64,000 bases of DNA from Gemmatimonadota bacterium (lineage in GTDB: Bacteria > Gemmatimonadota > Gemmatimonadetes > Palauibacterales > Palauibacteraceae), in NCBI GenBank assembly GCA_046757485.1, contig JBHHYJ010000002.1, positions 8,073 to 72,072 of the forward strand, in the 5' to 3' direction. Below, piece after piece: positions 41,624 to 60,286 of the stretch. How positions within the stretch are numbered: position 1 is the first letter of the stretch; each line of letters starts with the position of its first letter. Position numbers and translations under genes: made by a program. The notes beneath the pieces were generated by a model. The model was not told where the DNA came from, ran no database searches, and saw only the letters and a list, made by a program, of their open reading frames with translations.

Positions 41624-41673
41624 CTCTGGCCGGAGATTCGGGGCGCCCCCGCGCCGGACCGTCGTGATCCGAG

Positions 41674-43053
41674 ATGGCTGCCATGAAGACGATCATCGAG
41701 CCGTTCCGAATCAAGAGCGTCGAGCCGATCCGCATGACCTCGCGGGAGGACCGCGAGGCGCTGATTCGTGGAGCCGATTACAACGTTTTCCGGCTGCCCG
41801 CCCGCGACGTGATCATCGACTTCCTCACCGACAGCGGCACGGGGGCGATGAGCGCCAACCAGTGGGCGGCGGTCATGCGAGGTGATGAGTCGTACGCGGG
41901 CAGCGAGAGCTTCTATCGTTTCGAGGCCGCGGTCCGGGAGATCTTCGGCTTCAAGCACGTGATCCCCACCCACCAGGGCCGGGCCGCCGAGCGGATCCTC
42001 TTCAGCACGGTGTGCCGGGCCGGCGATGTCGTCCCGAACAACACGCACTTCGACACCACGAGGGCCAACATCGAGTTCACGGGTGCGGAAGCTCTCGACC
42101 TGCCCTGCCCGGAGGCCAGGGAGATCGGAACGCCCCACCCGTTCAAGGGGAACATCGATCTGGAGGGGCTCGAGGCGACGATCCGGGAACGACGGGAGAG
42201 AATCCCGCTCGTCATGCTGACGATCACGAACAACTCCGGCGGCGGGCAGCCCGTCTCGCTGGCGAACGTCCGGGCCACGGCCGAGCTGTGTCACGCCCAC
42301 GACATCCCGCTGTACATCGACGCCTGTCGCTTCGCGGAGAACGCCTACTTCATCCGCCGGCGGGAGGACGGATACGGAGAGAAAAGCTACCTCCAAATCG
42401 CCCGGGAGATCTTCTCCCACGCGGACGGCTGCACGATGTCCGCCAAGAAGGACGGGCTGGCGAACATCGGGGGCTTCCTGGCCACCAACGACGACCGCCT
42501 GGCGCGCCGGGAGGAGGAGCTGCTCATCCTGACCGAGGGTTTCCCCACCTACGGGGGGATGGCGGGGCGCGATCTGGAGGCGATCGCCGTGGGGCTCTAC
42601 GAGGTGCTGGAGCCAGACTATCTGGAGTATCGGGCCGCCTCCTCCCACTACCTGGGACGTCACATCGCCGAGGGGGGAGTCCCGATCGTCCAACCGCCGG
42701 GCGGTCACGCCATCTACATAGACGCCGCCGCCTTCTGTCCCCAGATCCGTCCGCTCCACTTCCCCGGCATCGCGCTCACGGTGGAGCTCTACCGGGAAGC
42801 CGGAATCCGGAGCGTGGAGATCGGGAGCGTGATGTTCGGCTCGGCGGACCCGGAGACCGGGGAGGCCGTCCCGGCCCGCCAGGAGCTCGTGCGCCTGGCG
42901 ATCCCCCGCCGCGTCTACACCCAGAGCCACGTGGACTACGCCGTGGAGGCGATCCTGTCCGTGTACGGGCGCCACGACGCCCTCCGGGGCTTCCGCCTCG
43001 TGGAGGCGCCCCCGGTCCTCCGGCACTTCACCGCTCGCTTCGAGCCGCTGTAG
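41674..43053 (+). CDS. Tryptophanase / tyrosine phenol-lyase family beta-eliminating lyase (PLP-dependent)
   Basis: 459 aa, collinear with E. coli TnaA. EPFRIKSVEPI, DLLTDSGTGAMS, IPTHQGRAAE and SAKKDGLANIGGFL (PLP-Lys). Confidence 0.85.
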   Translation: MAAMKTIIEPFRIKSVEPIRMTSREDREALIRGADYNVFRLPARDVIIDFLTDSGTGAMSANQWAAVMRGDESYAGSESFYRFEAAVREIFGFKHVIPTHQGRAAERILFSTVCRAGDVVPNNTHFDTTRANIEFTGAEALDLPCPEAREIGTPHPFKGNIDLEGLEATIRERRERIPLVMLTITNNSGGGQPVSLANVRATAELCHAHDIPLYIDACRFAENAYFIRRREDGYGEKSYLQIAREIFSHADGCTMSAKKDGLANIGGFLATNDDRLARREEELLILTEGFPTYGGMAGRDLEAIAVGLYEVLEPDYLEYRAASSHYLGRHIAEGGVPIVQPPGGHAIYIDAAAFCPQIRPLHFPGIALTVELYREAGIRSVEIGSVMFGSADPETGEAVPARQELVRLAIPRRVYTQSHVDYAVEAILSVYGRHDALRGFRLVEAPPVLRHFTARFEPL

Positions 43054-43145
43054 GCCGCTTCGGGTTCGGTTGCGGCGGGGCCGCGAGTCCCATGTGGCGC
43101 CGGACCGGCCTACCAAGCGAGGGGCCTCATTCGGGGGTGCCGCCG

Positions 43146-44444
43146 TCAGCCGCGGCTCAGCGCCCCGACGACCTCGCCCAGCGCCGCCATCGCCTCCCGG
43201 AGCTGGTCGTCGCACAGATACGGCGCCGGCCCGAGACGCAGGAGCTCGCCCCGGTGATCGGTTCGGACGTCCCGCTCGCGAAGGAGCCGGGAGATCTCCG
43301 CGGCCCGGGGGCTCCGGAGGGCCAGGAAGCCGCCGAGCTCCCCGAGATCCATTGAGCGGTCGCGGCGGATGAGGCGGGGGTCGGCGTCCAGCTCATCGAA
43401 CCGCTCGGCGAGGAGCCCCACCTGGTGCTGGCTCACCTCGCGCAGGAACTCCGGTGCGAGTCCCTCCTCCTCGCAGAAGGCGAACACCTCGGCGGCCCGG
43501 TAGTGGCTCGTCGGATCGTACGTGCTCCCGGCGAACCGGTCCGGTCCGCGGCCGTACACGACGGGGGTCGGGCCCTGGTCGGCCCCCTCCTCCCGCTCCG
43601 TGCTCGTCCCGCGCTCCAGGGCGCCGTCGGGGCCGGAGGGGGGACGCCCACGGCCTGCCAGCGGCGCTCCGCGCGTCCCTTCCAGGGCGCCGAACTCGCT
43701 GAACCAGCCGGTGATCGCGGGGCGGAACTCCCGGCCGGTCGGAAAGCGGAGGAAGCAGTTCCCCTCTCCGAGCTGGCAGTACTTGTAGCCCCCGCCCACC
43801 ACGAACGCGCCCTCCAGGCCCTCCCCCCCGAGCGACAGGGGCACGGCGTTCAGGGAGTGGTAGGCGTCCATCAGCAGCTCCGCCCCCCTCCGCTCGCACG
43901 CCCGGGCGACCTCGCCCAGGCCCCGCACGATGCGGGCGTCCTCGTAGAAGACGGAGGAGACGAGGGCGGCCGCCGTCCGGTCGTCGATCCGCTCGGCGAG
44001 GCGGGTGGCGACCGTGCTTACCGGATCGCGGCTCACCCTGACCACCTCGAGGCCCTCCTCCGCCAGCCGGTCGAGCTGGCGCCGAATCGTGTGGAACTCC
44101 CCGTCCGTCGTGACGAGCCTCGGCCGCTCCCGGAGGGGGCAGGCGGAGAGGAAGCGGACCACGAGGTCGTGCGTGCTGGAGGCGAGCGCGATCCGGTCCG
44201 CCGAATCGCCCAGCAGGCGGGCGAACCCGGCGCGCACCCGGGCCGCCCGCTCGAACGCCCGCTCCCACTTCTCGTCCACGCACTCCGCCGCGTCCTCCCA
44301 TGCCCGCCGCTGGCCCTCGAACCCCCGGTCGGGCCACGCCTGGTGGGAATGGCCCGTCAGCAGCAGCCGCTCCTGCACCCGGAAGGCGGAGTAGTGGGGC
44401 GCCAGCGCGTTCGGACGCCGATAGAGATCCTCCGGGCTCCGCAC
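43146..44444 (-). CDS. kynU: Kynureninase (aminotransferase class V fold)
   Basis: Collinear with Pseudomonas kynureninase (LMDAYHSLNAVPLSL, GGYKYCQLGEG, C-terminal ...LRLGPAPY...). The GTG start at about 44444 is preceded by GAGG. The upstream 300 codons of the track ORF overlap the TDO gene and are rejected. Confidence 0.75.
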   Translation of the reverse strand: MRSPEDLYRRPNALAPHYSAFRVQERLLLTGHSHQAWPDRGFEGQRRAWEDAAECVDEKWERAFERAARVRAGFARLLGDSADRIALASSTHDLVVRFLSACPLRERPRLVTTDGEFHTIRRQLDRLAEEGLEVVRVSRDPVSTVATRLAERIDDRTAAALVSSVFYEDARIVRGLGEVARACERRGAELLMDAYHSLNAVPLSLGGEGLEGAFVVGGGYKYCQLGEGNCFLRFPTGREFRPAITGWFSEFGALEGTRGAPLAGRGRPPSGPDGALERGTSTEREEGADQGPTPVVYGRGPDRFAGSTYDPTSHYRAAEVFAFCEEEGLAPEFLREVSQHQVGLLAERFDELDADPRLIRRDRSMDLGELGGFLALRSPRAAEISRLLRERDVRTDHRGELLRLGPAPYLCDDQLREAMAALGEVVGALSRG

Positions 44445-44455
44445 GGCATCCCGCC

Positions 44456-45295
44456 TCACAGCTGGGTGCGAATCTCCCACAGGTCCGGGAAGAGGGGGCG
44501 GAAGATCCGCCTCTTCAGGTACTCGACGCCGCTCGTCCCGCCCGTTCCCCGCTTCGCGCCGATCGTCCGCTCCACCATCTTCACGTGCCGGTAGCGCCAC
44601 TCCTGAAGGCCCTCGTCCAGGTCCACCAGCCGCTCGCACAGCTCGGCGGCCGCGGGGTTCTCCCGGTACACGTCGATGAGCACGCCCTGCAAGCCGGGCG
44701 ACGGCTCGACGGGGCGGGTCACGTCGCGGCCCAGGAGCTCCTCCGGGACCGCGTACCCCTCGCCCGCCAGGTAGTGGAGGAAGGCGTCCCACAGGGTCGG
44801 CTCCTCCAAGCGGCGCTCGAGCACCGCCCGGGCCTCGCCCCCCTCGGGGTAGCGCTCGAAGACCCTCTTGTCCTTCAGGCCGAGGAGGAACTCGAGCTCC
44901 CGGAACTGCCGGGACTCCAGCCCGCTGGCCGCCTCCAGCCGCTCCCGGAAGGCGAGGAACTCCAGCGGCGTCATCGTCTCCAGGATGTCGAGCTGCGAGA
45001 CGAGGACCTTCAGGATCGTCAGGACTCGCTTCATCGTGTGGAGGGCCGGGGCCGTCGCATCCCCTTCCAGGAGGCGGCAGGCGTACTCCAGCTCGTGCAG
45101 CAGCTCCTTGAACCACAGCTCGTACACCTGATGGATCACGATGAACAGCATCTCGTCGTGATCCCGGCCTCCGGAGCGCGGCTGCTGGAGGGCGAGGAGC
45201 TCGTCCAGCTTCAGGTAGCCGGAGTAGGTCAAATACTTCGAGCCGCCTCCGCCGTCCGTCTCGTCTCGACCGGCCATCTCCGTCTCCCCGCTCAT
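44456..45295 (-). CDS. kynA: Tryptophan 2,3-dioxygenase
   Basis: YLKLDELLALQ, EMLFIVIHQVYELWFK and RLLEGD blocks. Start at M39 of the track ORF (MSGETEM...), overlapping the upstream stop by 1 nt (TGATG). Confidence 0.8.
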   Translation of the reverse strand: MSGETEMAGRDETDGGGGSKYLTYSGYLKLDELLALQQPRSGGRDHDEMLFIVIHQVYELWFKELLHELEYACRLLEGDATAPALHTMKRVLTILKVLVSQLDILETMTPLEFLAFRERLEAASGLESRQFRELEFLLGLKDKRVFERYPEGGEARAVLERRLEEPTLWDAFLHYLAGEGYAVPEELLGRDVTRPVEPSPGLQGVLIDVYRENPAAAELCERLVDLDEGLQEWRYRHVKMVERTIGAKRGTGGTSGVEYLKRRIFRPLFPDLWEIRTQL

Positions 45296-47574
45296 CAGTA
45301 TCCCCACTCGAAGCGAGGCGTGTAGTCGTCCAGCACGGAGTAGGGGAGGGGCCACGGGAGGTCGTAGCCCAGCGCGTACGCCGCATGGCGCGTCCAGTAG
45401 GGATCCCACAGGTGGGCGCGCGCCAGGCAGCAGAGGTCCGCCCGCCCGGCCGCCAGGATCGTGTTCACGTCCATGAAGGAGGAGATGTTGCCCACCGCCA
45501 TCGTGTGGATCTCCGCCTCGTGCCGGATCCGATCGCTGAACGGCGTCTGAAACTGCCGTCCGTAGCGTGGCTTCGCGTACGGTACCGTCTGGCCGGCCGA
45601 GACGTCCACGATGTCACACCCGTGCGCCTTGAGCATCCGGGCGACCTCGACCGCGTCCTCCGCCTCCATCCCACCCGGAGCCCAATCCACGGCGGAGATG
45701 CGTACGGAGAGCGGCTTGCGCGCCGGCCACACCGTCCGAACGGCGTCCAGAACCTCCAGCGGAAACCGCATCCGGTTCTCCAGGGGGCCGCCGTACTCGT
45801 CCGTGCGGATGTTGGTGAGGGGGGAGATGAAGCTCGCGAACAGGTAGCCGTGCGCGAAGTGGATCTCGACGAGATCGAAGCCCGCCTCCTCCGCCATGCG
45901 GGTGGCCCGAACGAACTCCTCCCGCACGCCCTCCATGTCGTCCCGGTCCATCTCTCGCGGAACGGGGCTGTGGGGATAGTATGGCACGGGCGAGGCGGCG
46001 ATGATCGGCCAGCCCCCTACCTCCAACGGCTCGTCGATCCCCTCCCAGGCGAGTCTCGTCGAGCCCTTCCGGCCCGCGTGCCCGAGCTGGAGGCCGATCT
46101 TGGCATAGCTGTTCTCGTGGACGAAGCCGACGATGCGGCGCCATGCTTCCACGTGCTCGGGTCGATACATGCCGGCGCACCCGGGCGAGATCCGGCCTTC
46201 CCGACTCACGTCCGTCATCTCGGTGCACACGAGGCCCGCGCCCCCGATCGCCCGGCTGGCGAGGTGGACGAAGTGCCATTCGTTCGGCAGCCCGTCCTCG
46301 GCCAGATACTGGCACATCGGCGAGACGACGACCCGGTTGGCCAGCACGAGATCCCGGAGCTTGAATGGGGTGAAGAGCGGCGGGGGCGGAGGGTTCTCGG
46401 GCCCGGCCACCCCCGTCTGCTCGCTCGCACGACGGGCCACCCACTCGTCCACGCTCGCGGTGAAGGCCGGATCCCGGAGCTGGAGGTTCGAGTGGGTGAT
46501 CCGCAGGCTGCGGGTGAGGATGTTGAAGGCGAACTGGGTCGGCTCGGTCTGCATGTAGCGCTCCGTCCCCTCGAACCACTGAAGGCTCGCGTGGGCGGCG
46601 CGCTGCAGGCTCTCCACGCCAGGCCGACGTTCCTCCTCGTAGGAGGCGAGGGCGGCCGGCACGTCGTGACGGTGTTCGGCGAGCGCCTCCGCGAGCGCGA
46701 TCGCGTCGAGCATTGCCATGCGCGTGCCGGAACCCACGGAGAAGTGCGCCGTGTGGGCCGCGTCCCCCACCAGCACGACGTTGCCGTGCGACCAGCGCTC
46801 CGTGGAGACGGTGGGAAACTGCCGCCAGATGGACCGGTTCGCGATCAGATCGTGCCCCTCGAGCTCCGCGGCGCACAGGGCCTCGCAGAAAGCGAGCGTC
46901 TCCGTCTCGTCGGCCTCGCCCAGCCCGGCCGAGCGCCACGTTTCCTCTCGAGCCTCGACGATGAGGGTGGAGCTCGCCTCCCCGTCGCGGGCCGGCTCGT
47001 ACTGGTAACAGTGCACCCGCCACAGCCCGTGGGCGTCTTCCTTGAAGTAGAAGGTGAAGGCGGGAAACGGCTTCGTAGTCCCGAGCCACACGAACCGGTT
47101 CGGCCGCCGGTCGATCACGGGCCGGAACTCCACGCGGTACAGCTCCCGAACGGCGCTGTTCACGCCGTCGGCGCCCAGGATGAGGTCCGCATCGGCAAAC
47201 GGAGCCAGCTCCGTGACCTCTGTCTCGAAACGGAGCTCGACCCCCAGCTCCTCGCACCGCCGGTTCAGAATCTCGAGCAGCGTGAGGCGCGCCAGGCCGG
47301 CGAAGCCGTGGCCCGTGGAGCTGAGCACCCGGCCCCGATAGTGGATGTCGATGTCGTCCCAGTGGTAGAACTCCCGGGTGATCGCCTCGAAGGTGGGCGA
47401 ATCCGCCTCCTTCAGCTCCTCCAGGGTGGCGTCGGAGAAGACGACCCCGAAGCCGTACGTGTCGTCCCGGGCGTTTCGCTCCAGGACGAGGATCTCGTGG
47501 GACGGGTCCGCCTTCTTCATCAGGATCGCGAAGTAGAGCCCGGCAGGCCCTCCGCCCACGCTGACGATCCTCAC
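45295..47574 (-). CDS. Bifunctional FAD-monooxygenase / Old-Yellow-Enzyme reductase fusion (2-aminobenzoyl-CoA monooxygenase/reductase-like, also annotated in databases as salicylyl-CoA 5-hydroxylase/oxidoreductase)
   Basis: 759 aa. N-terminal [18 protein letters not shown] and GDAAHT flavin-monooxygenase motifs. C-terminal OYE TIM barrel ([51 protein letters not shown]). Confidence 0.8.
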
Positions 47575-48821
47575 GGCCGCTCTCCGGCCTCCGTGCCGTC
47601 GGGGCTCTGGGGCCGAACGGTGCCACCCCGGGCAGGCTCCGTGCCTCCGGCCGCCTCGTCATCCTCCCGATCCGCGGCCGCCGCCTCGATCAGCCCCTTG
47701 GCGATGATGAGCCGCTGGATCTCCGTCGTGCCTTCGTAAATCCGGAGGGCGCGGACGGAGCGGTACAGACGGTCGAGGGGGTTCTCCTTCAGCACCCCCC
47801 TCCCCCCCAGGATCTGCACCGCGTCATCCACGATCCGCTGGGCCGCCTCCGTGGCGAACGCCTTCGCCATGGAGGCCTCCGTCGCGGTTCGGTCGGCCCC
47901 GGCGTCCGTCTCCCAGGCCGCCCTGTAGACGAGGAGACGCGCGGCGGCCAGCTCGGTGGCCATCCGTGCGAGCTTCTCCTGCACGATCTGGAAGCGGGCC
48001 AGGGGGCGGCCGAACTGCTCGCGGCGCGAGGCGTGGCGCACGGCTTCCCGCAGAGCCCGAGCCGCCATCCCGCACGCGGCGGCCCCGACGGTGGGCCGCA
48101 GGCGCTCCAGGGTGAGGATCCCGATCCCGAACCCCTCTCCCTCCGCGCCCAGCCGGTCCGAGGCAGCCACCCGGCACCCATCCAGCTCGATCTCTCCGAG
48201 AGGGTGGGGCGCGGAGAGGACCTGTGCCTTCACGAAGCGCAGACCGGGCGCGTCCGCGGGGACGACGAAGCAGGTGATGCCCCGTCGACCGTCGTCGGGG
48301 TCCGTGGTGGCGAACGTCACGTAGAAGTCGGCGATCCCGGCGTTGGAGATGAGCGTCTTCCGCCCCGAGAGAACGTACTCGTTCCCGTCGCGGCGCGCCG
48401 TCATCCGAAGAGAGGCGACGTCGGATCCGGCCTCCGGCTCCGTCATCGCGAAGGCGGCCATCAGCGTCCCCTCCAGGAGCCCGGGAAGCCAGCGGTCTCG
48501 CAGGGCTTCGTTCCCAGCCAGCAGGAGCGGCGTTCCTCCGAGGGTCTGAAGCGCGAAGACGGCGTCGGCGAGCGGCGAGGCGGCGGCCAGCGCCTCCCGG
48601 ATGAGGCAGCAGGCCCGGAAGTCCTGCTCCGCGATCGGGGCGTACCAGCCGCCCGCGCCCAGCCGGCTCAGGATCTCCCGGGCCTGGCGGCGGGCCTCGG
48701 CGTCGTCGGCCGGCTCCGGACGGCCCGCGAGCTCCTGGCTGACGAGCTCGCCGATCCGCTCCGCGAGCTCCACGTGGCGTGGCTCCAGGAAGGCGCGCAC
48801 CGGCCGGATCGAGGGAACCAC
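47571..48821 (-). CDS. Acyl-CoA dehydrogenase
   Basis: [33 protein letters not shown] and [18 protein letters not shown] start at 48819-48821 preceded by GGAAGGAG. ATGA overlap with the downstream gene. Confidence 0.85.
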
Positions 48822-48844
48822 GGACGTCTCCTTCCCGGGCGGCG

Positions 48845-49714
48845 TCAGACGAACTCCGCGTCCCGCTTCGTCACGAACGCCTCGTATGCCTCCCGGAAGT
48901 TCTGGTTCTGCATGCAGATGGCCTGGACCTGCGCCTCCGCCTCCAGGGCGCTGGCCAGATCCATCGAGGCCTCCCGGTTCAGCGCGTCCTTCGTGATCTC
49001 CAGGGCGAAGGAGGGGCCGCGGGCCAGCTTTTCCGCCAGGGACCGCGCCTCCTCCTGAAGCCGCTCCGCCGGTACCACCCGGTTGTAGAGGCCGATCCTC
49101 AGCGCCTCGGCGGCGTCGATGAAGTCGCCCGACATGAGGAGCTCCGTAGCGCGGCCCAGCCCGACGATGCGGGGGAGGAGCCAGGAGGCGCCCATGTCGG
49201 CCCCCGAGAGCCCGACGCGGGTGAACAGGTAGGCGATCTTCGCCGTCTCCGCGGCGATCCGCACGTCGCACGCCGTGGCGATCACCGCCCCCGCGCCTGC
49301 CACCGTGCCGTTCAGGGCCGCCACCACCGGGCGTCGGCAGCGGCGGATCGCGAGGATCAGGTCGCAGGTCAGCCGGGTGAACTCCAGGAGCCCCTCGTAG
49401 TCCCGCTCGAAGAGGGGGCCGATGATCTCCTCCACGTCGCCGCCGGAGCAGAACGCCCGACCCGCGCCCGTGATCACGACTGCCCGTACGCCGGGCTCCG
49501 TGTCCAGGGCGCGGAAGGTGTCCCGGAGCTCCGCGTAGACCTCGAAGGTCAGCGCGTTCAGCCGCTCCGGGCGGTTCAGGGTGATCGTCGCCACGGAGCT
49601 GTCGGGGTCCTTTTCGTACAGGAAAGAGCGGGGTGTCAGCACGTTCCCTCTCCGTTGGTTCGCCGGCTCTCTTCCGGCGCCGGCCTCTCGCGCCGGTCTC
49701 GTTCGCGTCCTCAC
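48845..49714 (-). CDS. Enoyl-CoA hydratase/isomerase (crotonase) family protein
   Basis: ITGAGRAFCSGGDV and AALNGTVAGAGAVIATACDVRIA are crotonase oxyanion-hole motifs. Confidence 0.85.
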   Translation of the reverse strand: MRTRTRPAREAGAGREPANQRRGNVLTPRSFLYEKDPDSSVATITLNRPERLNALTFEVYAELRDTFRALDTEPGVRAVVITGAGRAFCSGGDVEEIIGPLFERDYEGLLEFTRLTCDLILAIRRCRRPVVAALNGTVAGAGAVIATACDVRIAAETAKIAYLFTRVGLSGADMGASWLLPRIVGLGRATELLMSGDFIDAAEALRIGLYNRVVPAERLQEEARSLAEKLARGPSFALEITKDALNREASMDLASALEAEAQVQAICMQNQNFREAYEAFVTKRDAEFV

Positions 49715-49787
49715 GTGCCCGGCGGCCGGCGGGCCGCGTCCGCCGGGCCCTCCTCCCTCCCGGGCGAGCTGGCGAAGGACTCCGGCG

Positions 49788-50189
49788 CTACGGCACGACC
49801 GCGGTCGCCTCGATCTCCAGCAACGCCTCCTCGTCTGCCAGCCCCTTCACCTCCACGAGCGCCATGGTGGGGTAGTGCCGATCCATCAGCCGGCGGTAGG
49901 CTACGCCCAGCGCCCTGCGGTTCCCCAGGTACTCCTCCAGGTCCGTGACGTACAGCGTGAGGCGCCCGATGTCCGCCGGTTCCCCGCCCGCCTCTCGGAC
50001 GACGGCCACGACCTTCGAGAGAGCCCGCTCGAACTGCTCCACCAGGCCGAAGGTGCGGACGACGCCGTCCGCGTCGCTCGCCGTCTGCCCGGCGACGAAC
50101 AGGAGGCGCCCGGGCGCCGTCGTCAGGAGACCGTGGTTCCAGCCGCGGGGGGTCCCCAGCGGTTCCGGGTTGATGATGCGGTATCTCAC
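49788..50189 (-). CDS. RidA/YjgF family enamine/imine deaminase
   Basis: 133 aa. LLFVAGQTA...VVRTF...RLTLYVTD...VEVKGLA is the RidA fold signature. Confidence 0.8.
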   Translation of the reverse strand: MRYRIINPEPLGTPRGWNHGLLTTAPGRLLFVAGQTASDADGVVRTFGLVEQFERALSKVVAVVREAGGEPADIGRLTLYVTDLEEYLGNRRALGVAYRRLMDRHYPTMALVEVKGLADEEALLEIEATAVVP

Positions 50190-50247
50190 TCGAGCCTCGC
50201 TTCCTGGACGGGGTCTCCCGCCGGTCGACCGGGGTGACGCGGCTCCC

Positions 50248-51078
50248 TCACTCGTCCGGCGCCACCCCGCCGTCCGGTCCGGCCGCCGATCCGTCTCCCA
50301 TGACGATGGCCTCCCCGTTCGTTCGGCCGCCCTCCTCGCCGCACAGGGCGAGGACCGCCCTGGCGACCTCCGCCGGGGAGAGGAGCCGGGACTGGCCCGC
50401 GGCCCGCAGGATCGCCTCCCGCGCCTCCTCCTCCGTCCTCCCGGTCTTCCGCACGATGCGGCGGACGGACTCTCGGGTCATCTCCGTGTCCACGTAGCCC
50501 GGGCACACGGCGTTCACGGTCACCCCGGTTCCCTCGACCTCCGCCGCGGCGCAGCGCGTGAGGCCGACGACGGCGTGCTTCGAGGCGGCGTACGCCGCGA
50601 TGTAGGGCGCCCCCCCGAGACCCGCCACGGACGCCACGTTCACGATCCGCCCCCGGCCCCGCTCCACCATGCGGGGCAGGAAGGCGCGGAGGACGAGGAA
50701 CGTCCCCGTCGCGTTCACCGCGAGCGTCCGGTTCCACTCCTCGAGCGTCAGACCCGTCACCGGGGCGGAGCCCGCCACCCCGTGGCTGTTCACCAGGATC
50801 TCCACCCGGCCCACGAGCTCGGCCGCCTCCCCCGCCAGGCTCCGCACGCTGGCCGGGTCCGTCACGTCGCAGCGGACCGCCGCCGCTACGTCACCGCGCT
50901 CGCGCAGCTCGGCGGCCACCCGCTCGATCTCCTCCTCCGTGCGGGCCGCGACCACGACCGCGGCTCCGGCGCCGGCCAGCTCCCGGGCGACCGCCGCACC
51001 GATCCCCCGGCCCCCGCCGGTGACAACGGCCCCGCGCCCCGCGAGCCTCCCGTCGAGGGCTCCGCGCGCCCCGCTCAC
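50248..51078 (-). CDS. SDR family oxidoreductase (3-hydroxyacyl-CoA/3-oxoacyl reductase-like)
   Basis: TGGGRGIGAAVA (cofactor motif), NSHGV and YAASKHAV (YxxxK). ATGA overlap with the upstream gene. Confidence 0.85.
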   Translation of the reverse strand: MSGARGALDGRLAGRGAVVTGGGRGIGAAVARELAGAGAAVVVAARTEEEIERVAAELRERGDVAAAVRCDVTDPASVRSLAGEAAELVGRVEILVNSHGVAGSAPVTGLTLEEWNRTLAVNATGTFLVLRAFLPRMVERGRGRIVNVASVAGLGGAPYIAAYAASKHAVVGLTRCAAAEVEGTGVTVNAVCPGYVDTEMTRESVRRIVRKTGRTEEEAREAILRAAGQSRLLSPAEVARAVLALCGEEGGRTNGEAIVMGDGSAAGPDGGVAPDE

Positions 51079-51884
51079 GGCCCCCCTCCCGCTCCCCCCT
51101 TCCGTCTCCCTTCGCCTCCGCCTCCCACGGAACGATCGATCTCCGCCCGCACGGCCTCCGCCAGGATCTCGCCCAGCCGCTCGATCGTGCGCCGGCCCTC
51201 CGCCTCCGTGGCCTCGGCCGGAGCGCCGAAGTACGCGCGCGGGCCGCCCGCCTCCTCGAAGCTCGCCTTCCCGTCCCGAATCGCCTCGGAGAGAGAGACC
51301 GGGTTAGGGGGAAGCTCCCGGCACACCGCCTCCCGCACGAGCTCCGGCCGCCGGGCGAGGACGATCGAGGTCTCGTACCGACCGGCGTGGCAGGCTCCGC
51401 TCCGGAACTCCTCCGTCAGCCGGAGCGCCCACGGCTTCCGGGTGAGGTCGGGGAAGACGACCCGCGCTCCGGCCTCCCGCCGCGCCTCCTCGGCGCCCGT
51501 CCGGAGCGCCGCGAGGTGGGCCGGGTCCAGGTGCGCGTTGGCGATCGCCAGGTGCCCGATCCCGTGCCGGGCGAGCCCGCGGGCGACCTCGGCCACGAGG
51601 GCACTCACCGTCGCGGGGCGCGCCGAGATCGTCCCGGGGAACCCGGCGCCGAACTCCGCCGCCGTGTACGCCAGCGGGGGGAGAAGGAGCGGCTCGAATC
51701 CCTCGCCGGCCAGTCGCTCCGCCGCCGCCTCGGCCATCGCCTCGGCGATCAGGACGTCCGTGCCCAGGGGGAGGTGCGGGCCGTGGGCCTCTACCGCTCC
51801 CACGGGCAGGACCGCCACCGCCCGCGACCGATCCCGGTCCCGGAGCTCCTCCCAGGTCATCTCGAACAGCCTCGACACCGGCAT
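51075..51884 (-). CDS. Creatininase / ArfB-family amidohydrolase (candidate formamidase)
   Basis: VLPVGAVEAHGPHLPLGTDVLIAEA and GHLAIANAH..RYETS are creatinine-amidohydrolase-fold motifs. First gene of the minus-strand catabolic operon. Confidence 0.75.
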   Translation of the reverse strand: MPVSRLFEMTWEELRDRDRSRAVAVLPVGAVEAHGPHLPLGTDVLIAEAMAEAAAERLAGEGFEPLLLPPLAYTAAEFGAGFPGTISARPATVSALVAEVARGLARHGIGHLAIANAHLDPAHLAALRTGAEEARREAGARVVFPDLTRKPWALRLTEEFRSGACHAGRYETSIVLARRPELVREAVCRELPPNPVSLSEAIRDGKASFEEAGGPRAYFGAPAEATEAEGRRTIERLGEILAEAVRAEIDRSVGGGGEGRRKGGAGGGP

Positions 51885-51942
51885 CGCGCGGCCCCCGTCT
51901 CCCGTTGCCCGTCATTCTAGCCGCGGAGTATCATCCGGCACC

Positions 51943-53547
51943 ATGCCGTTCTCGCCACCCCCAGCGTTCAACATCGCCGACCACTTCCTCGACGCCCGCA
52001 TCCGCGAGGGCCGGGGCGGCCGGACGGCGATCCTGACGGACGACGGCCGCCTCACGTACGCCGACGTCCAGGCGCTCGCCCACCGGTTCGGGAACCTCCT
52101 GCGCGCGGCCGGCGTGGCCCCGGAGCAGCGGGTCCTCCTCGCCCTGCCGGACGGCCCGGCGTTCGTCGGCGCGCTTTTCGGCGCGCTGAAGATCGGCGCG
52201 GTGGCCGTGATGCTGAACCCGGAGCTCAGGCCCGCGGAGATCGAGCAAGTGTGCGGCTACACGCGGGCCGTGGCCGTGGTCACGTGGCCCGGGGGCCGGG
52301 AGGCGTTCGAGGCGGCCGCGCGCGGGTCCGGGCCGCGGACGATCCTGGTGGCGGGGGACGCCGGGTTCGAAGCCGATCTCGCTGCCGCGTCCCCCGAGCT
52401 CGAGGGCTTCCCGACCCACCGGGACGACGCGGCGATCTGGCTCTTCTCCGGCGGCACGACGGGCCGTCCCAAGGCGGTCATCCAGTCTCACGCCTCCTTC
52501 GCGAACACGACGGAATGCTACGCGAAAGGCGTGATCGGGTACGGCGAGGAGGACATCACCCTCTCCGTTCCGAAGCTGTACTTCGGCTACGCCACCGGCT
52601 CGAACCTCTTCTTCCCGTTCGCCGTCGGCGGGGCGACCGTCCTCTTTCCCGAGCGGTGCACGGCGGAAGGCCTGTTCGACAGGATCGAGCGTTTTCGGCC
52701 GACGATCCTGGTGAACGTACCGACCATGGTCCAGCGGATGGTCGGCCACCCGGACGCCGCGGGCCGCGACCTCTCCTCCCTGCGGCTGGCCACCTCCGCC
52801 GGCGAGGCGCTGGCGGCGGATCTCCACCGCCGCTGGGCGGAGACGTTCGGCGTGGAGCTCCTGGACGGGCTCGGGACGGCCGAGATGTGGCACATCTTCC
52901 TCTCCAACCGGCCGGACGAGGTCCGTCCGGGCACCCTGGGGCGGGCGGTCCCCGGCTTCGACGTGCGGGTCCGGGATGAGGAGGGGCGGGACCTCCCCCC
53001 GGGCGAGGTCGGGTGGCTGTGGGTGCGGGGCCGGTCGCGGGCCATCGGCTACTGGCAACGGATGGAGCAGACGATGGAGGCGTTCCGGGGCGAGTGGTAC
53101 GTCTCCGGCGATATGGTCCGGCGGGATGCGGACGGGTACTTCACCTACTGCGGCCGGGGGGACGACATGCTGAAGGTCTCCGGCAAGTGGCTCTCCCCCG
53201 TGGAGGTGGAGGAGTGTCTCCTCGAGCACCCGGCCGTCCGGGAGGTCGCGGTGGTCGGCGTCGTCGGTCCGGACGGGCTCACGAAGCCGCACGCCTACGT
53301 CGTCCCGGCTGTGTCGCGGGAGGAGGGCAGTGGAGCGTCGGGGGAAGCCGGAGGCGTGCGGGAGGAGGCCCGGGAGGCGCTCGAGGGGGCCGGCGCGGAG
53401 CTCGAGGAGGAGCTCCAGGCGTTCGTCAGGGAGCGATTGGCCCCGTACAAGTACCCCCGCCGGGTGATCTTCGTGGAGGCGCTCCCGCGGACCCACCTGG
53501 GCAAGGTGGACCGGGGGCGCATCCGGAGGACGGGCGGGCCGGCGTAG
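51943..53547 (+). CDS. Benzoate-CoA ligase family protein (AMP-forming; candidate 2-aminobenzoate-CoA ligase)
   Basis: ATG at 51943. N-terminal FNIADHFLD...GRTAI...TYADVQ is typical of the benzoate-CoA ligase family. AMP-binding motifs (FSGGTTGRPKAV, YRTGD-like WYVSGD, PRTHLGKV). Divergent from the catabolic operon. The upstream 660 codons of the track ORF are rejected. Confidence 0.85.
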   Translation: MPFSPPPAFNIADHFLDARIREGRGGRTAILTDDGRLTYADVQALAHRFGNLLRAAGVAPEQRVLLALPDGPAFVGALFGALKIGAVAVMLNPELRPAEIEQVCGYTRAVAVVTWPGGREAFEAAARGSGPRTILVAGDAGFEADLAAASPELEGFPTHRDDAAIWLFSGGTTGRPKAVIQSHASFANTTECYAKGVIGYGEEDITLSVPKLYFGYATGSNLFFPFAVGGATVLFPERCTAEGLFDRIERFRPTILVNVPTMVQRMVGHPDAAGRDLSSLRLATSAGEALAADLHRRWAETFGVELLDGLGTAEMWHIFLSNRPDEVRPGTLGRAVPGFDVRVRDEEGRDLPPGEVGWLWVRGRSRAIGYWQRMEQTMEAFRGEWYVSGDMVRRDADGYFTYCGRGDDMLKVSGKWLSPVEVEECLLEHPAVREVAVVGVVGPDGLTKPHAYVVPAVSREEGSGASGEAGGVREEAREALEGAGAELEEELQAFVRERLAPYKYPRRVIFVEALPRTHLGKVDRGRIRRTGGPA

Positions 53548-53690
53548 GGGGCCCCGCCGGGCATCGGGAGCGAATCGGACACCTCTGCCCTCGATGGCTG
53601 ACCACGGCCCCGGAGCTTCCGGATCCGTGCTCCCGCCCGGTCGTTCCTTTAGATTCTCCCCGCACGCGGCCCGAGCCGGAGGGAGATCCC

Positions 53691-53822
53691 GTGTCCGCCA
53701 CCGCCATCGTCGTCATGGTCATGATCCTCGCGTTCGTGTGGGGAGGCTTCCTCCTCATCCTGGCGACCGCCATGCGAAAGGAGCGGCGGAAGGGGGAACC
53801 CGCCTCGCCGGGCGGGACGTGA
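53691..53822 (+). CDS. Small single-TM membrane protein (43 aa), hypothetical
   Basis: A strong GGAGGGAG RBS lies 5 nt before GTG at 53691. Peptide VSATAIVVMVMILAFVWGGFLLILATAMRKERRKGEPASPGGT has a hydrophobic helix then a basic tail. The stop overlaps the next start as GTGA. Not called in the ORF track as an independent gene. Confidence 0.3.
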   Translation: MSATAIVVMVMILAFVWGGFLLILATAMRKERRKGEPASPGGT

Positions 53823-59779: not shown

Positions 59780-60286
59780 ATGTGGAGAAGCATCCGAAGG
59801 CTCTCGTTCCTGTCGCTCGCCGCTGCCCCGCTCGCCGCCTGCTATGGGGAAGAAGGCGAACCGGCCGTGGACGTGGAGGCCGAGGCACAGACCATACGCA
59901 CGATTTCGCAGCAGTGGCTGGAGTACCAGCGCGCGCGCGACGCCGCCTCCATTGCGGGCCTCTTCGCCGAGGACGGAGTCGGCCTGTACCCGGACAATGA
60001 CCCGTGGGAGGGGCCGTCGGGCGTCCAGGCGGGTCAGGAGGAGGAGTTCGCCGAGTTCCCCGCCGTCGAGTGCGATTGGTCCACCGTCTCCGTGGAGGTC
60101 GACCCCGGCGGCCGAATGGCCTGGGAGCGCGGCGAGTTCACCTGCGACCCGGACGGGCCGGGGGCTCTCGGAGCCGACTCCGGCAGCTACCTCACGGTCT
60201 ACAAGAAGATCGGCGGAGAGTGGAAGGTCGCCGCCGACATCTCCACGACCCACCACCCGGGAACCCCGGCCGAGAGCGAGGGCTAG
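59780..60286 (+). CDS. NTF2-like (SnoaL/DUF4440-type) lipoprotein
   Basis: Lipobox LAACYG. IRTISQQWLEYQRARDAASIAGLFAEDGV...YLTVYKKIGGEWKVAADISTT is the DUF4440/SnoaL-like pattern. GGAGG RBS. Confidence 0.6.
   Translation: MWRSIRRLSFLSLAAAPLAACYGEEGEPAVDVEAEAQTIRTISQQWLEYQRARDAASIAGLFAEDGVGLYPDNDPWEGPSGVQAGQEEEFAEFPAVECDWSTVSVEVDPGGRMAWERGEFTCDPDGPGALGADSGSYLTVYKKIGGEWKVAADISTTHHPGTPAESEG

Follow-up and report, generated by a model that had tools for sequence, protein, structure and literature searches.

A creatininase-family metal hydrolase as a candidate arylformamidase in a tryptophan and 2-aminobenzoyl-CoA operon of Gemmatimonadota

Two unrelated types of kynurenine formamidase are known, the cyclase-fold KynB and the alpha/beta-hydrolase Afmid, and to our knowledge many genomes with a tryptophan 2,3-dioxygenase (TDO) and a kynureninase still have no recognisable formamidase. 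Formate is also released by members of the creatininase family: BrbF of Sinorhizobium meliloti (SMc02977), a creatininase homologue, frees formate from a formylamino-pyrimidine in riboflavin biosynthesis, and ArfB is cited as its archaeal counterpart in this reaction (PMC9478397). With this proven deformylase in the family, N-formyl deformylation is chemically plausible for the creatininase fold, as the initial annotation of the locus had argued. Literature searches gave no paper that ties the creatininase family to kynurenine formamidase.

The 2-aminobenzoyl-CoA (abm) gene clusters described in Azoarcus, Paracoccus, Cupriavidus and Arthrobacter (PMC3534580, PMC8879955) have in common with the operon studied here the genes for AbmA, an SDR oxidoreductase, an enoyl-CoA hydratase (ECH) family protein, an acyl-CoA dehydrogenase (ACAD), RidA and a CoA ligase. 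However, their gene order is different and they contain an additional MarR and, usually, a thioesterase. Furthermore, they have no creatininase-family gene and rarely kynA/kynU, whereas our operon contains a creatininase-family gene, here named Crn, a TDO and a kynureninase-like (KynU-like) gene.

Organization of the operon and its formamidase gap

The window, that is, the whole 64-kb stretch of Gemmatimonadota DNA analysed, contains a tightly packed minus-strand operon of eight genes in the order Crn-SDR-RidA-ECH-ACAD-AbmA-TDO-KynU-like, with an aryl-CoA ligase running divergently. Crn heads this operon, as was initially annotated. The features are:

51943..53547, plus strand: aryl-CoA ligase, presumed anthranilate-CoA ligase (TIGR02262 benzoate-CoA ligase family, 466 bits, cut-off 375; AMP-binding, E 1.5e-75)
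51885..51942, no strand: divergent intergenic region of 58 bp between Crn and the ligase (start codons read from the sequence)
51075..51884, minus strand: Crn, creatininase-family metal hydrolase, candidate arylformamidase (PF02633, fold model, invariant metal/catalytic residues)
50248..51078, minus strand: SDR oxidoreductase (adh_short, E 1e-61; start overlaps the Crn stop in ATGA)
49788..50189, minus strand: RidA/YjgF-family protein, presumed to act on the AbmA product as enamine/imine deaminase (PF01042, E 7e-16)
48845..49642, minus strand: ECH-family protein of the PRK08258 type (NF006107, 388 bits, cut-off 330)
47571..48821, minus strand: ACAD (Acyl-CoA_dh domains; start refined to GTG 48821)
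45295..47574, minus strand: AbmA-like bifunctional FAD monooxygenase and old-yellow-enzyme reductase (NF006101, 1131 bits, cut-off 1078; FAD_binding_3 and Oxidored_FMN)
44456..45295, minus strand: TDO (PF03301, E 6e-65; E 4e-60 to PDB 2NOX)
43146..44459, minus strand: KynU-like divergent PLP enzyme, type A (profile-profile homology to KynU)

Four gene junctions have overlapping stop and start codons, namely Crn/SDR, ACAD/AbmA, AbmA/TDO (TDO start ATG 45295) and TDO/KynU-like, and the start of ECH was refined to GTG 49642, which is preceded by a GGAG-like site. A sigma-70-like site on the plus strand (51905-51934), which is weak evidence, lies between Crn and the ligase and is the sole one within 42800-53800. 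GC3-based gene calling did not tell real from shadow ORFs.

The AbmA-like protein belongs to the family of 2-aminobenzoyl-CoA monooxygenase/reductase and salicylyl-CoA 5-hydroxylase, and a RidA-family gene is also found in proteobacterial abm clusters. Five of the eight operon genes and the divergent ligase encode the abm pathway, and operon and ligase together span the route from tryptophan through anthranilate and 2-aminobenzoyl-CoA to ring reduction. The operon had been described wrongly at first because this abm part was overlooked. The TDO assignment is sustained by its match to solved TDOs, while that of kynureninase stands as homology and falls as a canonical enzyme: the KYNU_C Pfam model gives 21.8 bits, below its cut-off of 27, and single-sequence searches of NCBIfam and PDB give no kynureninase match, but hhalign aligns the KynU-like protein to canonical KynU with 98.9% probability (E 1.5e-17). 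The PLP lysine motif YKY is retained, and identity of the family to canonical kynureninase is 23-29%.

Between tryptophan and the ring-reduced CoA ester, only the formamidase reaction has no other candidate gene in the operon, and Crn is the sole hydrolase in the operon without an assigned step. All six reading frames of the 64-kb window were translated and searched with a KynB HMM, whose source sequences had been checked against PDB 4COB/4COG/4CZ1, and, by phmmer, with two bacterial alpha/beta-hydrolases of the Afmid-like type. Neither search gave a match; the reported absence of both formamidase types holds in these searches across the window. The loci with Crn or its subfamily (L001-L083, L091-L096 and L180), none of which exceeds about 21 kb, likewise showed neither a KynB nor an Afmid-like gene; the KynB HMM gave only a chance-level match to the Crn ORF (E 0.04, in L010).

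Sequence and fold of Crn

The Crn ORF starts with ATG, encodes 269 amino acid residues and fills 51075-51884 of the minus strand exactly; a deposited protein from a Gemmatimonadota MAG is identical to it. PF02633 (Creatininase) aligns to Crn over model positions 2-238 of 238, with an E-value of 9.3e-59 and 199 bits (cut-off 31.3). The AlphaFold model (pLDDT 91.2) shows a creatininase fold, and Foldseek against PDB matched it to 1Q3K and 3A6x with TM scores of 0.72-0.77 and E 1e-15, which bears out the family assignment made initially. Alignment of 32 orthologues shows that E32, H34, D43, H118, H166 and E171 are invariant. E32, H34, D43, H118 and E171 align to the metal ligands Glu34, His36, Asp45, His120 and Glu183 of P. 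putida creatininase, and H166 aligns to its catalytic His178. Crn is, therefore, confirmed as a full-length creatininase-family protein with an intact binuclear-metal site.

Of the creatinine-binding residues of P. putida creatininase, Trp154 and Trp174, which stack on creatinine, are replaced in Crn by Pro and Gly, and Tyr121 and Glu122 by Leu and Asp, respectively. Crn is also under the curated cut-offs of the NCBIfam creatininase TIGR04448 (EC 3.5.2.10; 93.1 bits, cut-off 235), the mycofactocin peptidase MftE, TIGR03964 (111 bits, cut-off 172; the operon has no mft genes), and the 3-dehydro-scyllo-inosose hydrolase IolN, NF041098 (partial match of 45 bits, cut-off 245). Crn was rejected as a true creatininase, MftE or IolN, given the cut-offs missed and the different substrate-binding residues. 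Database names for Crn-type proteins include 'creatinine amidohydrolase'.

Conservation of Crn loci and candidate reactions

The layout around Crn recurs in about 87 MAG loci that belong to Gemmatimonadota, Eisenbacteria, Acidobacteriota, Myxococcota and Planctomycetota. The steadiest neighbours of Crn are the ligase and the SDR, not TDO: 70 loci have enough upstream sequence, and in 60 of these the ligase adjoins Crn in divergent orientation, while the SDR lies directly downstream in 71 of 79. Crn is not beside the ligase in L031, L054, L057, L065, L077 and L082 (Thermoanaerobaculia, Multivoradales and Longimicrobiales), and L055 shows ligase and Crn alone. Crn-adjacent ligases form a subfamily of their own, 55-68% identical among themselves and 31-37% identical to the ligases of Crn-free proteobacterial and actinobacterial abm clusters. 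In L091, L093 and L094-96, Crn neighbours the ligase and a KynU-like gene, with no abm gene within 10 kb. L180 contains a Crn-subfamily member and a KynU-like protein in one ORF of 658 residues, directly after the ligase; its Crn domain is divergent and keeps 43 of 61 invariant residues. Both in L093 and in L180, Crn sits between the ligase and the KynU-like part, and TDO is missing from L091, L093, L094 and L180, four loci with a minimal or fused layout. In other representatives, Crn is joined to the SDR or to RidA in a single ORF; read literally, these would tie it to the lower pathway. All of these apparent Crn fusions may be artefacts, produced by assembly or gene calling where neighbouring genes overlap. 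L100, which shows the ligase, KynU-like and abm genes without visible Crn, is uninformative because its contig ends where Crn would lie.

In 33 loci AbmA is complete and the sequence continues for 2.3 kb or more past it; 32 of them have a TDO and/or KynU-like gene. However, a scan of 80 metagenome loci around KynU-like relatives gave no Crn orthologue, although TDO stands beside the KynU-like gene in 44 of them, nearly always immediately upstream. Look-ups of three proteins closely related to the window-type KynU-like placed all of them in bare TDO-KynU-like pairs lacking Crn. In P0399, a KynU-like relative is fused to TDO. Crn was accordingly discarded as a general partner of TDO-kynureninase-like pairs (0/83 KynU-like-centred loci, 80 scanned and three look-ups); its association with kynA/kynU is seen in complete operons, and the specific link proposed initially is weaker than was assumed. 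The search nevertheless brought to light a large, poorly annotated and divergent kynureninase family that partners TDO. Recurrent ORFs near KynU-like genes were discarded as alternative formamidases, with no Pfam match. The creatininase-family gene next to TDO-KynU-like in L104 keeps 26 of the 61 invariant residues, is of a different subfamily and was not counted as support. L169 has, directly upstream of KynU-like, an alpha/beta-hydrolase of the formamidase type with HGGYW and GHSAGG motifs, and no TDO nearby; therefore, formamidase genes can cluster with kynureninase alone.

The abm pathway and Crn are separable. The abm clusters of Paracoccus, Ralstonia and Phyllobacterium have neither kynA/kynU nor Crn, and no creatininase-family gene is found in these or in that of Thalassospira. 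Among 72,556 plasmids, no Crn orthologue above 37% identity was found, yet 240 records cover at least 80% of AbmA. Since abm clusters free of kyn genes are also free of Crn, and since Crn stays with the ligase and KynU-like in the absence of abm genes and shares an ORF with KynU-like in L180, the data support a role for Crn in the upper pathway, from tryptophan through anthranilate to the CoA ester, and not in the lower abm pathway.

From its gene neighbourhood, Crn is the best candidate for the missing formamidase and could plausibly deformylate N-formylkynurenine or N-formylanthranilate. Our preferred reading, to which we assign a probability of about 40%, is that Crn is a cytosolic binuclear-metal amidohydrolase that supplies the deformylation (EC 3.5.1.9-type) for a self-contained tryptophan catabolic operon; both substrate and reaction are what we infer from context. 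TDO would open the indole ring to give N-formylkynurenine, from which Crn would take off formate to give kynurenine, and the KynU-like enzyme would then produce alanine and anthranilate. The divergently transcribed ligase would convert anthranilate to anthraniloyl-CoA, and AbmA, RidA, ECH, SDR and ACAD would dearomatise and degrade the ring.

In a second and rather unlikely scheme, the order of two steps is swapped. In these bacteria, which live in soil and sea and belong to several phyla with few cultured members, the KynU-like enzyme would cleave N-formylkynurenine to alanine and N-formylanthranilate, and Crn, paired with a dedicated CoA ligase, would deformylate N-formylanthranilate for the ligase and the 2-aminobenzoyl-CoA pathway. 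This side route is long established, and the KEGG map of tryptophan metabolism shows it as EC 3.7.1.3 and then EC 3.5.1.9. The scheme fits the fact that Crn tracks the ligase, its sole partner in L055, far more than TDO, as well as the position of Crn between ligase and KynU-like in L093 and L180 and the strong divergence of the KynU-like family from canonical kynureninase. Widespread TDO-KynU-like pairs with none of the known formamidase types nearby would also agree with it, as harvest of alanine only needs no deformylation, although unlinked formamidase genes explain these bare pairs equally well. Furthermore, the preference of the KynU-like enzyme for N-formylkynurenine is an assumption, and the six loci with Crn away from the ligase go against the pairing. 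If this order were true, Crn would represent a third unrelated arylformamidase class and the formylanthranilate side route would gain a new physiological role.

It is quite unlikely that Crn cleaves another amide or lactam, such as N-acetylanthranilate, anthranilamide or an oxidised-tryptophan lactam, to give anthranilate or kynurenine, or that it has an accessory role tied to the ligase subfamily. The separate subfamily of Crn-adjacent ligases and the absence of TDO from the minimal modules are consistent with such a role; however, no recurrent gene in the loci makes such an amide, TDO is present in nearly all complete window-type operons, and N-formylkynurenine is the only amide intermediate expected from the encoded enzymes.

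A role of Crn in the lower pathway, as a hydrolase of the enamine C-N bond or of a C-C bond in a cyclic dioxo intermediate from the AbmA product, was considered because IolN, a creatininase-family enzyme, opens a cyclic diketone. It is improbable and was largely rejected: although Crn lies immediately upstream of SDR-RidA-ECH-ACAD in 71 of 79 loci, with stop/start overlap, is joined to SDR or RidA in representative ORFs and shows a weak IolN match, the proteobacterial abm clusters named above are complete without a creatininase-family gene, Crn is found with ligase and KynU-like where abm genes are absent, and deamination and ring hydrolysis are already covered by RidA and the ECH-family protein. 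Crn was likewise rejected as a substitute for the abm-cluster thioesterase, as the Phyllobacterium cluster has neither. Finally, it is very improbable that Crn is present here by chance, as a common creatininase, a peptidase of the MftE type or a deformylase of the riboflavin pathway. Generic family membership and the database names speak for this reading, but Crn is under all equivalog cut-offs with its creatinine-binding residues replaced, genes for creatine, sarcosine, mycofactocin or riboflavin are absent from the vicinity, and the neighbourhood is kept across several phyla.

If the preferred reading, deformylation of N-formylkynurenine by Crn, is correct, a third, structurally unrelated enzyme type would be added to a known reaction, and the formamidase gap would be filled for MAGs of the five phyla that contain the Crn loci. 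Thousands of 'creatinine amidohydrolase' annotations would be corrected, and the formamide-hydrolase chemistry of the creatininase fold, known from ArfB and BrbF, would reach aromatic amino-acid catabolism. It would also help to reconstruct the mineralisation of tryptophan by abundant soil bacteria via the hybrid aerobic 2-aminobenzoyl-CoA pathway.

Comparison with formamidases and creatininase-fold enzymes

The cyclase-family KynB (PDB 4COB/4COG/4CZ1) performs the reaction proposed for Crn by means of a binuclear zinc site, and its gene is frequently found in clusters with kynA/kynU. Its fold, however, is unrelated to that of Crn, and the equivalence would be functional, by non-orthologous displacement. 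In the Afmid/Bna7/Drosophila KFase type, bacterial homologues hold the genomic role proposed for Crn in Azospirillum kynU-kynA operons, in the Thalassospira abm and kyn cluster and in L169. The Thalassospira abm cluster with kynU-kynA carries an alpha/beta-hydrolase of the eukaryote-type formamidase kind; its Azospirillum orthologue (E 1e-111) is homologous to the Drosophila kynurenine formamidase 4E11 (E 5e-21). These enzymes are serine hydrolases with HGGYW and GHSAG motifs and show no similarity to Crn.

P. putida creatininase (PDB 1J2T, 1Q3K) is the solved structure nearest to Crn, with 28-30% sequence identity and the same metal ligands and catalytic His, but its creatinine-binding W154, W174, Y121 and E122 are not conserved. 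BrbF and ArfB are likened to Crn by fold and reaction type: they act on a nucleotide substrate in a riboflavin-gene context, whereas no riboflavin genes are found near the Crn operon, and they share with Crn the same fold and the hydrolysis of an N-formyl-(hetero)arylamine that is proposed for it.

Operon content and neighbourhood

Crn (51075-51884) is the head gene of a tightly packed minus-strand operon of eight genes coupled by four stop/start overlaps, with a benzoate-CoA-ligase-family gene starting divergently 58 bp upstream.

Genes of the operon and the divergent ligase gene (window coordinates)
51884-51075, minus, Crn, creatininase family, ATG start, 269 aa, operon gene 1
51078-50248, minus, SDR, operon gene 2
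50189-49788, minus, RidA, operon gene 3
49642-48845, minus, PRK08258-type enoyl-CoA hydratase (ECH), operon gene 4
48821-47571, minus, acyl-CoA dehydrogenase (ACAD), operon gene 5
47574-45295, minus, AbmA-like FAD monooxygenase/OYE reductase (NF006101, 1131 bits)
45295-44456, minus, tryptophan 2,3-dioxygenase (TDO), operon gene 7
44459-43146, minus, kynureninase-like PLP enzyme (KynU-like), operon gene 8
51943-53547, plus, benzoate-CoA-ligase-family gene

On the basis of this gene content and the divergent ligase gene, the operon is therefore read as the kynurenine route from tryptophan to anthranilate joined to the hybrid aerobic 2-aminobenzoyl-CoA (abm) pathway, described from Azoarcus, Arthrobacter and Cupriavidus (PMC3534580; PMC8879955). 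The initial annotation, which described a TDO and kynureninase operon, was right about TDO; however, the kynureninase is non-canonical, and the abm genes and the ligase had been overlooked. Convergent with the operon end, a gene at 41668-43053 (+) encodes a beta-eliminating lyase of the tryptophanase/tyrosine phenol-lyase family (PF01212, E 7e-82) and could give an additional way of degrading tryptophan alongside the operon. A DUF4440/SnoaL-like gene lies about 6 kb from the operon (59780-60286, +), and another directly adjoins KynU-like in locus L091 (6790-7254).

Crn and the kynureninase-like enzyme

The Pfam Creatininase model (PF02633) aligns to Crn over its full length (positions 2-238 of 238, E 9.3e-59). 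An identical protein was deposited from a Gemmatimonadota MAG, which agrees with the approximately 70% G+C of the window. The AlphaFold model, built on 32 orthologues, has a pLDDT of 91.2, and all its significant PDB neighbours (TM 0.67-0.77) are creatininases or, in two cases, structural-genomics entries labelled "putative creatininase". Family, fold model and gene order thus bear out the earlier description of the ORF as a creatininase-family gene heading the operon. The five metal ligands and catalytic His of Pseudomonas putida creatininase (E34, H36, D45, H120, E183; H178) correspond to E32, H34, D43, H118, E171 and H166 of Crn, all invariant across the subfamily, while the creatinine-clamping W154, W174, Y121 and E122 are replaced by P, G, L and D. 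Crn scores far below the cut-off of three NCBIfam equivalog models: creatininase (93 vs 235), MftE (111 vs 172) and IolN (45 vs 245). Since the metal-binding and catalytic residues are kept, the clamp is replaced and the equivalog scores are low, Crn is, as judged from its sequence, an active-looking member of an uncharacterised creatininase subfamily. In representative proteins P0262, P0356 and P0366, which have 525-588 aa, two creatininase domains are arranged in tandem. The Crn C-terminus (51075-51125) is a Gly/Glu/Arg-rich low-complexity tail, GGGGEGRRKGGAGGGP, absent from orthologues; similar tails or insertions, which orthologues do not have, are found in the window KynU-like (about 43560-43670, an insert of roughly 35 aa) and ligase (about 53400-53500).

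The window KynU-like scores under the Pfam KYNU_C cut-off, and its best PDB matches by sequence are cysteine desulfurases (about E 1e-4). Profile-profile comparison with three canonical KynU gave a probability of 98.9% (E 1.5e-17, 311 columns), with the YKY lysine kept. In dozens of loci a relative comes immediately after TDO, and in one case (P0399) the two are fused. The best interpretation of these proteins is a divergent family of kynureninases, comprising subtypes A and B with 33-35% identity between them. The family (window 43146-44459, minus; L097-L176 and L181-L183) is large, with members of about 395-400 aa that in most loci directly follow TDO, and it is missed by the NCBIfam kynureninase models, frequent names being cysteine desulfurase and hypothetical protein.

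Known kynurenine formamidases

A KynB HMM made from rebuilt sequences that had been verified against PDB 4COB, 4COG and 4CZ1 found nothing in the six-frame ORFs of the 64-kb window and the collected loci. For Afmid-like enzymes, we used as queries two alpha/beta-hydrolases from kynU-kynA contexts: that of Azospirillum, a homologue of the kynurenine formamidase of Drosophila (E 5e-21), and its Thalassospira orthologue (E 1e-111). Neither gave a match in the window or among the Crn loci, so the absence of both formamidase types noticed initially holds within the window. The Thalassospira abm cluster with kynU-kynA, which has the Afmid-like hydrolase alongside, is the sole such case among the sampled proteobacterial abm clusters. 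These eukaryote-type hydrolases (Azospirillum kynU-kynA-ABH operon, L090 6739-9610; Thalassospira abm-plus-kyn cluster, L085 8930-9778) carry HGGYW and GHSAGGH motifs and, although annotated only as "alpha/beta hydrolase", are probably the kynurenine formamidases of these Alphaproteobacteria.

Distribution of Crn and its candidate reaction

Metagenomes are rich in Crn orthologues (57-71% identity), and a genome scan gave 80 loci in MAGs of Gemmatimonadota, Eisenbacteria, Thermoanaerobaculia (Acidobacteriota), Myxococcota and Planctomycetota. With tblastn, the operon proteins were placed in 87 Crn loci. A divergent ligase gene adjoins Crn in 60 of the 70 loci with enough upstream sequence, SDR lies directly downstream in 71 of 79, and TDO and/or KynU-like occur in 32 of the 33 loci where AbmA is complete and the sequence continues for at least 2.3 kb past it. 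In the Planctomycetes variant L092 (288-7315), the ligase is followed by divergent Crn-SDR-RidA-MarR-ECH-ACAD-orf108-PaaA/PaaC-like-OYE, and AbmA flavin monooxygenase seems replaced by the di-iron PaaA/C-like protein and the separate OYE reductase. An extra stand-alone old-yellow-enzyme gene (484-490 aa) lies beside or in place of full-length AbmA in L002 (13915-15387) and L031 (16741-18195).

A search of 1.84 billion representative proteins gave one ORF, P0327 (658 aa), with Crn and KynU-like in one frame. Its contig (L180, 47% G+C) shows the order AbmA-SDR-ECH-ACAD-RidA-ligase-[Crn-KynU-like], and its Crn part keeps 43 of 61 subfamily-invariant residues. The adjacency is secure; the fusion is apparent and needs confirmation, because the assembly has many frameshifted genes. 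Other representative ORFs join Crn to SDR and to RidA; since these genes overlap by ATGA, all three joins may reflect mere adjacency. JGI contig L001 (10798-11964) shows another apparent fusion, with SDR and RidA predicted as a single product of 388 aa (adh_short plus Ribonuc_L-PSP).

On the simplest reading, Crn would remove the formyl group generated by TDO. Two orders of steps are conceivable, and we give a probability of about 0.4 to the one in which N-formylkynurenine is converted to kynurenine ahead of the kynureninase step. The proposal that Crn is the formamidase of this operon is partly supported, the gene itself being confirmed: its upper-pathway context agrees, whereas general pairing with TDO and KynU-like does not. 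In 80 metagenome loci centred on KynU-like (alignment A1), TDO was beside it in 44, immediately upstream in nearly all, and a Crn orthologue in none; three proteins closely related to the window-type KynU-like are all in bare TDO-KynU-like pairs. Crn therefore does not accompany TDO and kynureninase in general; it is confined to clusters in which this ligase subfamily also activates anthranilate. Those 80 loci include only one creatininase-family gene (L104 5593-6429, minus), which closely follows a TDO-KynU-like pair in convergent orientation. With 30% identity and 26 of the 61 invariant residues it falls into another subfamily, and its presence may represent coincidence or independent recruitment.

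Less probably, KynU-like cleaves N-formylkynurenine first and Crn then deformylates N-formylanthranilate just before CoA ligation, which would account for Crn tracking the ligase rather than TDO and for the bare pairs without formamidase. TDO is missing from four minimal or fused loci, and it is unlikely, somewhat more so than the N-formylanthranilate order, that Crn hydrolyses another amide feeding the ligase; the argument from missing TDO is softened by L169, where TDO is not nearby and the gene immediately upstream of KynU-like encodes a formamidase-type alpha/beta-hydrolase. A lower-pathway (abm) role is improbable. The AbmA clusters of Paracoccus, Ralstonia and Phyllobacterium, on plasmids or chromids, share AbmA, SDR, ECH, ACAD, RidA and ligase with the window operon, with or without thioesterase, but have neither kynA/kynU nor a creatininase-family gene, and 72,556 plasmids gave no Crn orthologue above 37% identity. 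Four architectures have no abm gene in view and were grouped as Crn with ligase and KynU-like: L091 (KynU-like and ligase share a strand, and Crn is divergent to both), L093 (ligase divergent from Crn, KynU-like after Crn), Planctomycetota loci L094-96, and L055 (nothing but ligase and Crn). Crn thus goes with the upper pathway, and a function unrelated to the operon is very hard to credit.

Within the literature library that was searched, no paper links the creatininase family with kynurenine formamidase. If deformylation of N-formylkynurenine by Crn were confirmed, a known reaction of known pathways would have a third type of enzyme, structurally unrelated to the other two. As initially pointed out for ArfB, the fold includes N-formyl deformylases: BrbF, which had long carried the annotation creatininase, removes the formyl group from a formylamino-pyrimidine, and archaeal ArfB does likewise (PMC9478397), and this formyl-removing chemistry on the same fold is a precedent for the reaction proposed for Crn.
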